A DNA stretch of 64,000 bases. Origin: Octopus vulgaris. Taxonomy: Eukaryota. Positions within the stretch are counted from its first letter, which is position 1, and every line of letters starts with the position of its first letter. Made by a program: the position numbers and the translations under genes. The stretch covers positions 114,948,001 through 115,012,000 of the forward strand of contig OX597823.1 in assembly GCA_951406725.2 (NCBI GenBank), given 5' to 3'. Of the stretch, positions 20,011-57,897 are shown in pieces. Under the pieces are notes generated by a model. It was not told where the DNA came from and searched no databases. It saw only the letters and a list, made by a program, of their open reading frames with translations.

Positions 20011-20734
20011 TCCTCCCATACAAAAATGGTAATTTACCCATATTCATCATCGCCAAACTAACATCTTTGGTTTTTCACTGATATACTGGATAAAACTGGG
20101 CCCGTAAAACTCTCAGTTCACCCCTTCAGTGCACTGATTTGCTTGCGGGTATTTCTTGCTGCCGAGACGATCTTCACATGCACACATCAAACCAAACACA
20201 CACATACCGTACTCACAGACCAAATATTCTACCAAACAAAAATGCTGCCATACAGTTTGCTGTTACAGCAAGTTTTAGCCCTCACAGGGCTTTGCATGAT
20301 ATGAAAACTTATCTAAGATACAGGTATACACAACAGTCCTGATTCTTACTACACCACAATCCTAAAAATACTACCTCTCCAACTCAGTATAGAGAAATAT
20401 AAGAAAACTATGTCTATAGAAATACTTACATCATCACTGGCTGGGAAACAATTCATCAAAATGTAAACTTTGAGAAATAGTAACTGTTGTGTTCCACGGA
20501 AGATCACCTTGCTCGCCTGTAATTATGGGAACTCCCAGAATTTAAGAGTACAGTAATAGTTTGTCATTGAAGGGAGAGCAACATGCCCAGTACGTCCGAT
20601 GCAGCCCACACGATTCATCACCGTGTACAGTATGGTCCTCGGCTGGACATACACACAGTCTAAATCAATTATGGACCAACTGGGCCTGCGGGATTTTCTG
20701 AATATCTCACTTAGGGAAAACTTAACTATAAATT

Positions 20735-22481: not shown

Positions 22482-22592
<111 letters not shown>

Positions 22593-22631
22593 TCTAAGTC
22601 TCTCTAAAGGAGATTACGGCAGCGGTACTGG

Positions 22632-23043
22632 ATATTGATAGTTATCGCCAAACTAATATGGCAGTCCATAAATATAGAACGAAAGCTGCCGTTGATTAGC
22701 TCCAAGAGGCCATCGCCTCTAGCTAGCTATGTGACACACGAATCTGTGTCCACTAACCTGTGTCCACTAAATTTAGGTAAATAATCCTTCGAACAGACGG
22801 TCAGTAGCGACGCCTGCTGGGTTCGGCTATTCTGCATTGATAAAGGGCAAATATCCTGAAACTAGTCTGCAGATGCCTGACCAGCAAGGGGAGCGGCTGA
22901 CCTCCCCTGTTCGAAGGTTATAATGGACATAGGTTTGTATGTCACATAACTAGCTAGAGGCGATAACCACTTGGAGCTATTCTACGGCAGCTTTCGTCCT
23001 ATATTTATGGACTGCCATATTAGCTTGCCGATAACTATTAATA
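22632..23043. mobile_element. ~410-bp foldback (MITE-like) element with ~200-bp inverted arms
   Basis: Arm pairs include atagttatcg..aatatggcagtccataaatatag..cgaaagctgccg / cggcagctttcg..ctatatttatggactgccatatt..cgataactat, ccttcgaacag/ctgttcgaagg, ggtcag/ctgacc and tgctgg/ccagca; ends in (AT)n. Confidence 0.9.
22831..22873 (+). ncRNA. Type-I hammerhead ribozyme, U3-A8 core variant, at the apex of the foldback
   Basis: tctgca-TTGATAA-agg[gcaaatat]cct-GAAAC-ta-GTC-tgcaga: perfect 6-bp stem I, 3-bp stem II, palindromic ACTAGT stem III, GUC triplet. Confidence 0.72.
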
Positions 23044-23256
23044 TATATATATATGTAATTCTGTAGTGGGTATATAATATGTGGAAATTGACGATTTAAA
23101 AGTCTGTTATCAGCATATTGGCATGGAAATAATTTTCTTTTTGCCCTTGTTTATAAGTTGTTTATAATTTTAGCCTTTAAAGGTATTTTAATATGCTGCC
23201 AATTTTTTGATGAAATTTTTTCTGTAAAATAACTTCATCCTATATTAGTAGTAGTA

Positions 23257-27655: not shown

Positions 27656-27822
27656 GTATCGCAATACATGGATTCCCAGAATCATGTGGTTTTCACAGAA
27701 ACCTCTTTCACTGGTCCCAGCTATCATACCACATAGTTATCTGATACGGATGAGTGTAATGCAGAGTTCGATACAGCTGAAATTCAAATCCAATCGTTGA
27801 AACAACTTCATGAGAAGTATGT

Positions 27823-28318
27823 AAACCATAAAAAAATCAAGGGATATGAGATATGAACGCATTTATTTAGCCACTTTTTATCTTTAGTTTCGTAGCTCAA
27901 CACGTAATAACGATTACAGTGTATGATCAATTATTTTACATGTCTGTACTAATATGCTTGATATATATTGTACAATACAATTGAACATTTTCAAATCAAT
28001 GCAGATAAAGCAAACTAGCTCATCACATCACGAGCGTATCATGGCTAAGCCAATACTTCAAGCATCGGTTGAACCATGAGGTTCTGGTAAAGTGATCAGC
28101 TAGCTTTCTTTATCTGCATTGATTTGTATATACAGTTGTGTTATATAGTCGTATTGTATAATGTGTTGCATGCCTATTTGGACAGATATGTAAAATGATT
28201 TACTATTCACTGAAATTAATATTACATGATGAAAGTTGCGAAGTGGCCATAAGCGTGAGGATAACAAGTGATTAAATAAATATATTCGTCTCTCATATCT
28301 CCTGACGTTTTATGGTTT
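27823..28318. repeat. Diverged ~500-bp foldback element
   Basis: aaaccataaaa/ttttatggttt, gatatgaga/tctcatatc, caaatcaatgcagataaag/ctttatctgcattgatttg and ctagct.atcac/gtgat.agctag, with a ~65-bp loop. Confidence 0.7.
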
Positions 28319-28348
28319 ATGTGTGTGCGTGTGTGTCAGAGAGAGATG

Positions 28349-29049: not shown

Positions 29050-29830
29050 ACATTACAACGCCCTTCTTTTGTTTTACAACAAAATTATATAATACATTCT
29101 ATCATATGATATTTCTAAGTATTTTTAGGATGGTTGTTAGATGTTACTGGTGAGCATTTTATTTCCCTGTTTGTATTAGTAACGGGAAAGTATTTCTCTG
29201 TAGTCCTCTGTTCATGGTACTTTCGTCGAAGGCGAGCTTGCAGAAACGTTAGCACGCCGGGCGAAATGCTTAGCGGTATTTCTCCTGCCGCTACGTTCTC
29301 AGTTCAAATACCACCGAGGTCGACTTTGCCTTTCATCCTTTCGGGGTCGATTAAATAAGTACCAGTTACGCACTGGGGTTGATATAATCAATTAAACCGT
29401 TTGTCTATCCTTGTTTGTCCCCTCTGTGTTTAGCCCCTTGTGGGTAGTAAAGAAATAGGTACTTTCGTCGAAGGATAACACATTCAGCCTATTGTTGATG
29501 GTTATTGACCTATGTTTGATGACGGTGAGGGGTTGGATTGGATGTAAATCTTCAATGGGTCCTGGTAGGTTTCTTGAAAAAAATATCATATAGTTTGTAG
29601 CTCGGTTTCATCCCAACATCCAGAACGTTTACCATGGTGAATTTCGCTAAGTCAGTTAACTTTTCGGGGAATATTGTTCTTTTTTAAGTACTTCAAAGAC
29701 CTGCTGAAGACGAACATTTGAAGAATGAGTAACGTCGTTCCTTCAGTAGTTATTAGAAGTCATTGCCACCCGCTGTTCACTAAAGCCGCTTCCTTATTGT
29801 TTGAGGAGTGAAGATGTAGAGGAGAATATA
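29050..29830 (-). pseudogene. Decayed Penelope-like RT C-terminal/thumb region, interrupted by a SINE
   Basis: Minus frames give NFTMVNVLDV..DPLKIYIQSNP and VIKHRSITINNRLNVLSFDEST, resembling the PLE motifs FLDV..PLYI..SNHPP..I..RL..LS. Confidence 0.6.
29230..29460 (+). mobile_element. SINE family A with TSD
   Basis: ggtactttcgtcgaagg duplicated at 29216 and 29458. Confidence 0.92.
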
Positions 29831-29839
29831 TTCAATATC

Positions 29840-30071
29840 TATTTCTTTACTACCCACAAGGGGCTAAACACAGAAAGGACAAAGAAGGACGGACAAACGG
29901 ATTAAGTCGATTATATCGACTCCAGTGCATAACTGGTATTTATTTAATCGACCCCGAAAGGATGAAAGGCAAAGTCGGCCTCGGCGGAATTTGAACTCAG
30001 AACGTAGCGGCAGACGAAATACCGCTAAGCATTTCGCCCGGCGTGCTAACGTTTCTGCCAGCTCGCCACCT
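29840..30071 (-). mobile_element. SINE family A, full length
   Basis: Reverse complement of 21246-21481. Confidence 0.92.
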
Positions 30072-54692: not shown

Positions 54693-55177
54693 TTGCTACC
54701 TTCTACACACACATACTCACACACATATATATATACACTTTTTTTTAATTCAGTGGAACAAACGAGACTAATACAGTTTCCAGTAAGGCCTTTGTGATAT
54801 TTTTGTTTGCTTTAACAACATTATCATAATGACTGACTCTTAGCCATTGTTTTTTTTTTTTGTTTTGTTGTTTTCCTGTCTGTATTTTTTAGTGTATTTT
54901 GCGATTTATCCGAGAAAGTGAGAGAGACAAGATTAAAAAACGCAGAAAGCCATTGACTCGCTTTCTTCTTTTCAATGTGTTGTTCTTGAAGCGACGAGAG
55001 ATTCTAGTTTTAATTTCCTCTCTCTTATCTCTTGCATTTCTTTTATATTCACTTGCTATTTCACTGTAGCTTTTGCTGAGATATTACTAATTCTAAAGTG
55101 AAGCATAAAGCGGGATCATGTTATCGTGGTCATGTCGTCACTCTTAATAGATAAAATTAATATTAAAGTAAGCGTAA

Positions 55178-56258
55178 AGCGGCGAGCTGGCAGAATCGTT
55201 TGCACCCTTGGCGAAAATGCTCTTCGGCATTTCGTCAGTTTTTACGTTCTGATTTCAAATTCCGCCGAAGTCGACTCTGCTTTTTATCCATCGAAGTCGA
55301 TAAAATAAGTACCAGTTCAGTATTGGGTTCGATGAAAGCGGCTCATCCTCACCACTAAATTGCTGTCCTTGTATTAAGATATGAAACCAATATGCTTTTC
55401 TACTCTAGGCACAAGTCCCGAAATTTGGAGGGAGGAGAGCCAGTCGATTAGTCAACCCCAATACGCAACTGGTGCTTAATTTGTCGACGTCGAAAGGATG
55501 AAAGGCAAAGTCAACCTCAGCGGAATTTGAACTCAGAACGTAGCATCAGACGAAATATCGCTAAGCATTTCGCCCGGCGTGCTAACGTTTCTTATTTCCT
55601 TACTGCCCACAAGGGGCTACACTCAGAGGGGACAAACAAGGACAGACAAACGGATTAAGTTGATTATATAGACCACGTTGCGTAACTGATACTTGTTTAA
55701 TCAACCCCGAAATGATAAATGGCAAAGTCGAACTCGACGGAATTTGAACTCAGAACGTAGTGTCAGACGAAATACCTATTTCTTTACTACCCACAAGGGG
55801 CTAAACACAGAGGGGACAAACAACGACAGACAAACGGATTAAGTCGATTATATCGACCCCAGTGCGTAACTAGTACTTATTTAATCGACCCTGAAAGGAT
55901 GAAAGGCAAAGTCGACCTCGGCGGAATTTGAACTCAGAACGTAGCATCAGACGAAATACCGCTAAGCATTACGCCCGGCGTGCTAACGTTTCTGCCAGCT
56001 CGCCGCCTTAATATGAAACCAATATCAAAGCAATCGTAAGCTGGCAGTGAGCTGGCAGAAACGTTAGCACGCCGGGCAAAATGCTTAGTGGCATTTCGTC
56101 CGCCTTCACGTTCTGAGTTCAAATTTCGCTGTGGTCGACTTTGGCTTTCATCGTTTCGGGGTCAATAAAATAAGTGCCCGTTGAACACTGGAGTCGATGT
56201 AATCGACTTATCTTTTCCCACGAAATTGCTGTCCTTGTGCCAAAATTTGAAACCAATA
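55178..56258. mobile_element. Nested cluster of ~5 SINE family A copies in both orientations
   Basis: Plus copies at ~55178-55390 and ~56043-56258; minus copies at ~55397-55590, ~55592-55775 and ~55776-56010. Confidence 0.88.
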
Positions 56259-56728
56259 TTGAAATAATCGTATATCCAGTATAATCTTATTAGGGTTATC
56301 CAAAAATAAAGGAGTCTAGGTCTGTGCCAGAGTGATAAAAATAAATCTAGAGGAACAGTCTTAGGAGCAAAACAATGAGAATACAAACTATGTAATATTA
56401 TACAAAAGTTTGCATTATAGAATTTTAAGTTTCTATTAAATTATCAGAAGTTTGTTATATTATCCCTGTATCGACCAGAACTAACGGATGTTGCTAGACG
56501 CCAGCGGCCATAACGTGCTTTTTCGTATTTGTTGTAACTTTTATTGGGTGGCCATTCCTCTGGCTGGACGGACAGTCAACAGACCCTTCGAACGGGACTT
56601 CCAAATAAAATTGCAACGGCGTGACGTAAGCAGGAACTAACAATTTATATGTGCGTCTATCTTAATTTGCCACTATATATATATGAATTCAATTCGTCTC
56701 CAGTCGAAAGACGCCTGTTGTTATGTCC

Positions 56729-56805
<77 letters not shown>

Positions 56806-57251
56806 TTTTGTATTATTTTTGTATTTATATTCGTGTAACAACGTCCGTTTTACCGTCCTTCGTATACATTCGATGCTTTTTTCCAAGGAATCTAATGCTC
56901 TTAACTTAGTTTTTCCATGGGGCTGGCCAGATTGGAGCAATTTCAAGATTAATCAGCCGAAATTGCGAGGATGATCCGGTTCTTGACTGGAGATTAAAGG
57001 CTTCAAATGACCTGTCCGTGTATTTTGTATCGTCTATCTGGATGTTTTGCGTTCTTGTACCATTTTGTATTATGTATATATATATACATATGGAGAGACT
57101 GTGTTTGTGTGTGACAGAGTAAGAGAGTGAGTGAGAGAGAGAGAGAGAAGGAGAGACAGAGAGAGGGAGAAAGGGCGATATAGTTAAGTGAGCAGACTAA
57201 TACTGAAATAATACAGAAACAAATTAGCGGCACTTTGTGACTTGGGAAATA

Positions 57252-57673
57252 CTCTTTACTCTTTACTCTCTTTTACTTGTTTCAGTCATTTGACTGCGGC
57301 CATGCTGGAACACCGCCTTTAATCGAGCAAATCGACCCCGGGACTTATTATTTTGTAAGCCCAGTACTTATTCTATCGGTCTCTTTTTTTTACCGAAATG
57401 CTAAGTAACGGGGACATAAACACACCAGCATCGGTTGTCAAGCAATGCTAGGGGCACAAACACAGACACACAAACACACACACGCATACATATATATATA
57501 CATAAATACGACGGGCTTCTTTCAGTTTCCGTCTACCAAATCCACTCACAAGGCTTTGGTCGGCCCGAGGCTATAGTAGAAGACACTTGCCCAAGGTGCC
57601 ACACAGTGGGACTGAACCCGGAATCATGTGGTTGGTAAACAAGCTACTTACCACACAGCCACTCCTGCGCCTA
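57252..57673 (-). mobile_element. SINE family B, full length
   Basis: Reverse complement of 26286-26734. Confidence 0.93.
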
Positions 57674-57682
57674 TTTCAAAAA

Positions 57683-57897
57683 TCTTTTCTACTCTAGGCA
57701 CAAGGCCCGAAATTTGGTGGGAGGGTATCAGTCTATTAGATCGACCGCAGTACGCAACTGGTACTTAATTTATCGACCCCGAAAGGATGAAAGGCAAAGT
57801 CGACCTCGGCGGAATTTGAACTCAGAACGTAGCGGCAGACGAAATACCGCTAAGCATATCGCCCGGCGTGCTAACGTTTCTGCCAGTTCGCCGCCTT
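57683..57897 (-). mobile_element. SINE family A (alternative tail ..ccttgtgcctagagtagaaaag)
   Basis: Head and central domain near-identical to the other family A copies. Confidence 0.9.

Follow-up and report, generated by a model that had tools for sequence, protein, structure and literature searches.

Hammerhead ribozymes have been described both in Penelope-like elements (PLEs) and in the non-LTR retrozymes of metazoans. In the PLEs of Schistosoma, the U3-A8 variant of the hammerhead core was reported earlier by Cervera and de la Pena (2014; PMC4209133), who also defined the canonical helix sizes of type I hammerheads and noted pairs of motifs that lie 100–700 bp apart on opposite strands. 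Natural U3-A8 variants were also published by Perreault et al. (2011; PMC3088659). An inverted copy plus a tail is a described feature of PLE insertions, the origin of which was called unresolved, and the motifs RWK, DKT, CxxC, and CRH were listed for the (TA)n-targeting Hydra clade of PLEs (Craig et al., 2021; PMC8557442). For the retrozymes, cleavage was found in only one of nine dimers from Xenopus (Li, Clavereau and Pollet, 2026; 10.64898/2026.07.22.740005). The retrozyme papers name PLEs only as likely carriers, based on co-occurrence and pLTR similarity, whereas the copies described here bear the insertion footprint of PLEs.

The window analyzed in this study is a stretch of 64,000 nt from the genome of Octopus vulgaris. 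Pattern scans revealed only one convincing hammerhead in the window; the further inverted PLE remnants mentioned in the first-pass annotation, in which a ribozyme is located in an arm, were not seen there. The hammerhead is part of what this annotation described as a foldback element of ~410 nt. RNA folding confirmed a long hairpin at 22632–23044 (-251.7 kcal/mol, z -19.9), and none of 100 shuffled sequences was equally stable. The element, however, begins near 22583 and not at 22632, because a ~49-nt unpaired tail to the left of the rod had been missed. It is a decayed copy of an abundant retrozyme repeat of ~361 bases.

The unit of this repeat is numbered such that u1 is the base just after the cut. 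Mapped onto loci with natural dimers, the whole insertion (22583..23044, + strand) consists of two partial copies of the ~361-nt unit, the first of which is inverted and the second forward. The inverted part runs from ~u227 back to u55 (22583–22756). Its first portion is the unpaired tail (22583..22631, - strand; ~u179–u227), which lies between two end sites of the unit, site A (u178) and site B (u234). The rest is the left outer arm (22632..22756, - strand), an inverted and 5′-truncated second copy that extends from u178 back to ~u55 and lacks the hammerhead. The forward partial copy (22763..23044, + strand) runs from ~u255 through the cleavage site to u178 at site A and has (TA)n at its end; its last portion is the right outer arm (22919..23044, + strand; u~53–u178). 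The two outer arms are copies of one sequence and are identical at 113 of 128 aligned positions. The junction of the arms (22744..22770) contains a 13-nt direct duplication with a period of 14 and a 4-nt microhomology, TCCA; among the junctions printed, this duplication was found in the window only. Since a side hairpin is located at the junction (~22757–22779), the rod of the window is not strictly unbranched. At the left end, an (ATT)n run (22542..22590) extends into the AT-rich sequence in which the element itself ends at site B and from which the run may have grown; a (TAA)n run likewise follows site B in two other loci (L002 and L025).

The window also contains other repeats. Two AT-rich foldback elements of ~500 nt are located at 19515–20012 (79% self-complementary) and 27822–28319 (68%), and scans found no hammerhead in them. 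Inverted pairs and clusters of one abundant, SINE-like repeat of ~230 nt are found at 17206–18205, 29231–30067, and 55176–57895. In addition, a frame of 498 amino acid residues (9821–11317, + strand), whose match to zf-RVT is weak, represents the 3′ part of a non-LTR retrotransposon and is directly preceded by a ~7-kb tract derived from (ATT)n, at about 2000–9400.

Within the forward copy, the two strands of an extended stem I (22786..22836 and 22868..22917, both + strand) enclose a type I hammerhead core (22837..22867, + strand). The 5′ strand is ~50 nt long, and its last 6 nt form helix I proper (TCTGCA, 22831–22836), which pairs with TGCAGA at 22868–22873. The core consists of UUGAUAA (TTGATAA in the DNA, 22837–22843) with its U3-A8 pair, stem II with a CAAAUA loop, GAAAC, and stem III of ACUAGU; GAAAC-TA-GTC ends at 22867, and cleavage is predicted after this GUC. 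Thus, the hammerhead and its U3-A8 core are located where they had been annotated (22831–22873). The helices are those of a canonical type I hammerhead, with a helix I of 6 bp, a helix II of 4 bp that includes one G-U pair, a short palindromic helix III, and the 3-8 pair. The window copy departs from most copies at 22830 and 22854 (C to T). An Rfam search, a check proposed in the first-pass annotation, did not recognize the motif: no hammerhead match was found on 22600–23050, even at E≤10, and for the whole window the 150 of 285 matches listed were microsatellite-driven only.

A loose hammerhead pattern was searched for in the whole genome (2.8 Gb, 227 contigs). It had 803 exact matches, which include those of sister families, and none in the control. 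Among the first 100 matches listed, 94 cores were U3-A8, 4 were C3-A8, and 2 were C3-G8. Hence, as had been proposed, U3-A8 is a maintained compensatory pair and is not private to the window. The center of stem III in the first 100 matches listed was AT in 41, TA in 30, GC in 17, CG in 6, and non-palindromic in 6. All four self-complementary forms of stem III are therefore in use (94 of 100), as would be expected if two ribozymes pair there; such a set of four palindromic variants in nature is a clear indication that dimer ribozymes are selected for. In the predicted dimer fold of L062, both stem III palindromes are paired with each other, and in the predicted monomer folds the core is mispaired with the GUC site, which would argue against activity of the monomer. 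The earlier reading of the palindrome as that of a minimal, dimer-forming hammerhead thus holds for the dimer, but the helices have canonical type I sizes and are not minimal.

At least three sister families carry related cores. One of them (L084–L089 and L195) has a 357-nt unit, a U3-A8 or C3-A8 core, and ACCGGT as stem III. A third family (L100) has the core UUGACAA. Two loci (L081 and L082) hold a C3-G8 sister family that is 63–68% identical to the window family, and one more divergent C3-G8 copy is found at L083. The sister families may record a change from C3-G8 to U3-A8, with C3-A8 as a possible intermediate or as a product of decay.

The extended stem I was aligned for 63 of 82 extracted cores; nearly all of the 19 omitted ones were cut off or rearranged in the aligned stretch. 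In the 63 copies, 95.7% of the cells were paired, compared with 31–44% in slid controls. Covarying pairs were found at the end of helix I (UA in 33 and GC in 19 copies) and further out (AU in 27, GU in 9, and GC in 25). As many pairs with changes on both sides were, however, also reached in 90 of 500 shuffles, and relatedness within subfamilies inflates the covariation counts, which reflect few subfamily events. Stronger support than these counts comes from two sister families of largely different sequence that retain a stem I of similar length. Given the pairing in 63 copies and the similar stem I of the sister families, the ~50 bp in the inner part of the rod are, as judged by alignment, a conserved feature of the family. 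In the window, this inner stem is imperfect, with 36 Watson-Crick pairs over ~50 nt plus wobbles. The two arms of ~200 bp annotated previously are indeed paired, but they are made of two distinct parts, a pair of outer copies and the imperfect inner stem. Similarly, the proposal that the whole element is an extended stem I is correct for the conserved inner ~50 bp and not for the outer arms of ~125 bp, which result from the inverted 5′-truncated second copy.

The mobile unit is a head-to-tail repeat of 357–365 nt that is present in hundreds to thousands of copies; a first-look search of the genome found 2787 candidates, 40 of which were scored. From cleavage site to cleavage site, the natural dimers measure 361 nt (L061) and 365 nt (L062), which, like the 357 nt of the sister family, are within the 150–450 bp of tandem units of retrozymes. 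The GC contents of the L061 and L062 units are 41–43%, below the 50% that bounds retrozymes. In predicted circular folds, both units have a long stem I that ends in a branched loop (z -4.6 and -6.0). Intact motifs occur in consecutive units at L053, L062, and L210, compared with one motif in the window copy, and the longest array seen spans 836 nt, about 2.3 units. No reverse transcriptase (RT) or endonuclease frame was found in the unit, and no LTR layout was found among the mapped insertions. By the features tested, which are unit size, type I hammerhead, non-coding sequence, and low GC content, the family would be classified as a non-LTR retrozyme.

Parts of the repeat unit were also found in deposited sequences (19 rows, 7 studies, four organisms), and none of the holders listed is recorded as RNA. 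Contigs from four runs that are only guessed to be RNA cover 27–30 of 30 bins of the unit, and contigs running into unlike sequence made up 2% in X1 and 23–43% in the others; these values do not bear on transcription or on circles. An exogenous, viroid-like origin was considered and rejected; viral contigs gave no match, and the two matches in metagenomes were both unrelated.

In 80 loci, which are the family's matches among the first 100 listed after 10 sister-family loci were left out, 81 insertions were mapped. Forty-four of them were simple and 37 had an inverted copy, all 37 being divergent and none convergent. An adjacent, inverted, and 5′-truncated copy, which is typical of PLEs, is thus present in 37 of 81 insertions. 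The 118 arm ends were concentrated at site A (u168–192; 48 ends) and site B (u222–245; 47 ends), although these windows account for only 14% of the unit. The 95 ends at either site and the distance of ~56 nt between A (u178) and B (u234) correspond to the one-sided tail of PLEs, with its two RT start sites. Moreover, in 23 of the 24 inverted insertions with both ends in these windows, one end was at A and the other at B (p 3e-6); one insertion was A+A, and none was B+B. An end outside A or B was found in 13 of 37 inverted insertions, and when borderline ends were counted by eye, about 24 of 28 were A+B. Thirty-seven of the 118 arms were longer than one unit, and arms without a ribozyme began at scattered sites, none of them at u1–u10, with no pile-up at the cleavage site. 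The arms exceeding one unit and the lack of a pile-up at the cut exclude a cut linear monomer as the template.

One intact ribozyme was found in 26 of the inverted insertions. Rods like that of the window were found in 6 of the 81 insertions (L032, L039b, L099, L166, L193, and L194, by reading of the map). The central place of the ribozyme in such a rod is a matter of geometry, since the two arms have their ends downstream of the ribozyme and only one of them reaches it. The first-pass annotation had instead taken the 410-nt rod itself as the mobile unit, in the form of a viroid-like rod RNA or a MITE-ribozyme hybrid that nicks itself at its tip. The great stability of the hairpin fits this proposal, as does the recurrence of window-like rods, three of which are seamless through an arm overlap of 16–33 nt at stem I, and such a copy, if transcribed, would form a rod transcript. 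The 44 insertions without any inverted arm are not expected from a mobile rod, however, and all 20 junctions differ among the 20 rod-like copies printed. The junction pattern of the window had only 4 matches in the genome: two true junctions (the window and L008/L216), one unrelated sequence, and one different palindrome. Furthermore, the two outer arms have diverged at 15 of 128 positions, as decay predicts. A long-hairpin appearance is common to the window rod, MITEs, foldback elements, and rod-like viroid or delta-like circles. Different from MITEs and foldback elements, the insertions have two different end sequences (A and B) in place of terminal inverted repeats, and neither arm length nor junction is constant from copy to copy. 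We therefore regard a mobile rod as highly improbable. Of the earlier proposal, a non-autonomous element of the PLE/retrozyme kind is retained, and a MITE hybrid is not.

The targets of the insertions are AT-rich or (TA)n, similar to those of PLEs. A microsatellite flank was present in 54 of 81 insertions and was mostly (TA)n, a raw share in a genome that is itself rich in microsatellites. In non-LTR retrozymes, target-site duplications, when present, are longer than 4 bp. Flanking repeats of at least 9 nt were found in 5 of the 27 insertions without a microsatellite flank, compared with 2 of 176 random control pairs; in the other 54 of 81 insertions they would be obscured by microsatellites. 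Three pairs of copies on one contig each share their flanks (L066/L067, L014/L015, and L017/L027) and are local duplications, and L066 and L067 adjoin C2H2 zinc-finger frames.

Taken together, the window element very probably is a decayed copy of a non-LTR retrozyme of ~361 nt that owes its rod shape to a second, partial copy in inverted orientation, which was likely made during insertion by a Penelope-like RT. Based on steps described by Cervera and de la Pena (2020; PMC7229834) and Frangieh et al. (2024; PMC11167929), tandem transcripts would cut themselves as dimers via the palindromic stem III, and the monomers would be ligated into circles. A PLE protein would then nick both strands of an AT-rich target, and cDNA synthesis would be primed at site A by one nicked strand and at site B by the other. 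As each cDNA would cross the cleavage junction, the RNA copied would be circular or an uncut multimer. Microhomology or stem I complementarity could then join the two cDNAs; where only one of them reaches the ribozyme, the ribozyme would come to lie between the arms, with stem I filling the gap to give a rod.

The same inversion, tail, and targets of PLE type might be expected if the unit were the pLTR of an autonomous PLE and its copies merely short, 5′-truncated PLE remnants. Retrozymes of Xenopus do resemble pLTRs (Li, Clavereau and Pollet, 2026), and PLE coding remnants adjoin two sister-family copies (L084 and L100). However, the sequence upstream of the ribozyme in the copies is that of the unit itself, over up to 2.3 units, and no RT/GIY-YIG frame joined in register was recognized, by eye and among frames of at least 130 amino acid residues, in the flanks of L001–L080. 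In addition, the PLE beside L100 has a different, minimal hammerhead, and only the (TA)n tract is common to both. Nor was similarity found between the unit and either of two PLE families sampled from this genome. An origin of the unit as a pLTR is thus unlikely, and a retrozyme inserted by PLE machinery remains the preferred reading.

The first of these two families is a very young and abundant autonomous PLE (L101–L135, with L131 at G000:C4:134760500-134770400), which was found beside the sister-family copy L100. Its 150 scored copies are 97–100% identical over 198 amino acid residues, and many have an intact frame of 727 amino acid residues. The frame contains RT motifs, a GIY-YIG-like end, RWK, DKT, CxxC, CRH, and a linker with F at the position of the second C; by this motif match, the young PLE would belong with the Hydra-clade PLEs. 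Pfam and PDB sequence searches did not recognize the 727-aa frame, and in Atlas it is near clusters with partial HTH_animal and GIY-YIG labels, which is a lead only. The young PLE carries its own minimal C3-G8 hammerhead motif. Its insertions are large divergent palindromes in (TA)n with two end sites ~70 nt apart, and all three palindromic insertions seen whole had one short and one tailed end. The second family (L136–L165) is 84–94% identical over ~86 amino acid residues of the endonuclease region and has a long, microsatellite-like 3′ region; the loci compared with the unit may not reach its 3′ end. At L100:1120-1830, the sister-family retrozyme and the young PLE meet tail to tail in one (TA)n tract, which suggests a shared target preference.

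A retrozyme might also acquire its inversions by LINE twin priming, by fold-back copying of cDNA, or by later DNA rearrangement. Other non-LTR elements abound in the genome, and no partner is picked out by sequence. However, fold-back copying would need one arm to contain the other, which is not the case for the window arms, and those arms overlap in unit sequence, while twin priming of L1 yields non-overlapping pieces. The A+B rule and the lack of convergent cases also match the PLE of the same genome, and the A+B rule matches the two RT start sites reported for a PLE of Anolis (Frangieh et al., 2024; PMC11167929). We consider these other routes very unlikely. With insertion by a Penelope-like RT as the preferred explanation, the likeliest candidate for the partner is a Hydra-clade PLE that targets (TA)n, the evidence indicating the kind of machinery and not the individual partner.

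A broader proposal, which we put forward tentatively and at somewhat less than even chance, is that circles of retrozyme RNA are mobilized in trans by a Hydra-clade PLE of unrelated sequence, and that the priming of two nicked strands at A and B is a general rule of PLEs that explains both inverted copy and tail. If this were true, a non-coding circle of 361 nt would provide a minimal RNA substrate with which to reconstitute the retrotransposition of PLEs. The A+B rule (23 of 24) leads to a sharp prediction on the origin of the inverted copy and tail of PLEs, which is testable with the intact young PLE. With its intact frames and ~70-nt tail, this Hydra-type PLE is a good candidate for in vitro work.

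The window rod had been presented as a layout without a described counterpart. It is not a new class; U3-A8 (PMC4209133) and the PLE inverted copy with its tail (PMC8557442) are both published. At the level of the family, inverted or tailed insertions are not mentioned in the main text of Cervera and de la Pena (2020; PMC7229834), and none were found in the main text of Li et al. (2026) or in a 2020 review in Cells. Literature searches found no inverted or twin-primed retrozymes and no palindromic non-autonomous Penelope of octopus, although supplements, Repbase, and Dfam may list related families. For cephalopod retrozymes they found only Craig et al. (2021; PMC8557442) and, as judged by listing, nothing on such an octopus hammerhead family. 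Set against the published main texts, the family is a new one of the non-LTR retrozyme kind, for which an entry in Repbase or Dfam is possible.

Similar to the PLE hammerheads of Schistosoma (PMC4209133), the octopus family has the U3-A8 covariation of the core and a palindromic helix III. Different from their minimal motif, however, it has a type I hammerhead with a helix I of 6 bp, a helix II of 4 bp, a CAAAUA loop, and an extended stem I of ~50 bp. Like the insertions of EN+ PLEs (PMC8557442; PMC11167929), its copies are partial tandems with an adjacent inverted 5′-truncated copy, a tail at one end, AT-rich or (TA)n targets, and two 3′ end sites. The tail of ~56 nt compares with 30–40 nt published for PLEs (PMC8557442), and, different from EN+ PLEs, the retrozyme lacks an RT or GIY-YIG frame and the whole element is the repeat unit. 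A proposed dependence on PLEs and dispersed monomers are shared with the non-LTR retrozymes of Xenopus (Li, Clavereau and Pollet, 2026), whose link to PLEs consists of pLTR similarity and co-occurrence; in the octopus, where the two PLE families sampled are dissimilar to the unit, the link is the insertion footprint. The closest resemblance in unit structure is to the metazoan non-LTR retrozymes (PMC7229834), notably the 350–390-bp repeats of Mytilus, with which the family shares a non-coding tandem unit of 150–450 bp, a type I hammerhead, a GC content under 50%, the lack of a visible LTR layout, a predicted circle that is highly self-paired, and coexisting PLEs. Different from the retrozymes described there, the U3-A8 core is fixed family-wide, most copies are dispersed and 1–2 units long, and nearly half of them carry an inverted copy and a tail of PLE type.
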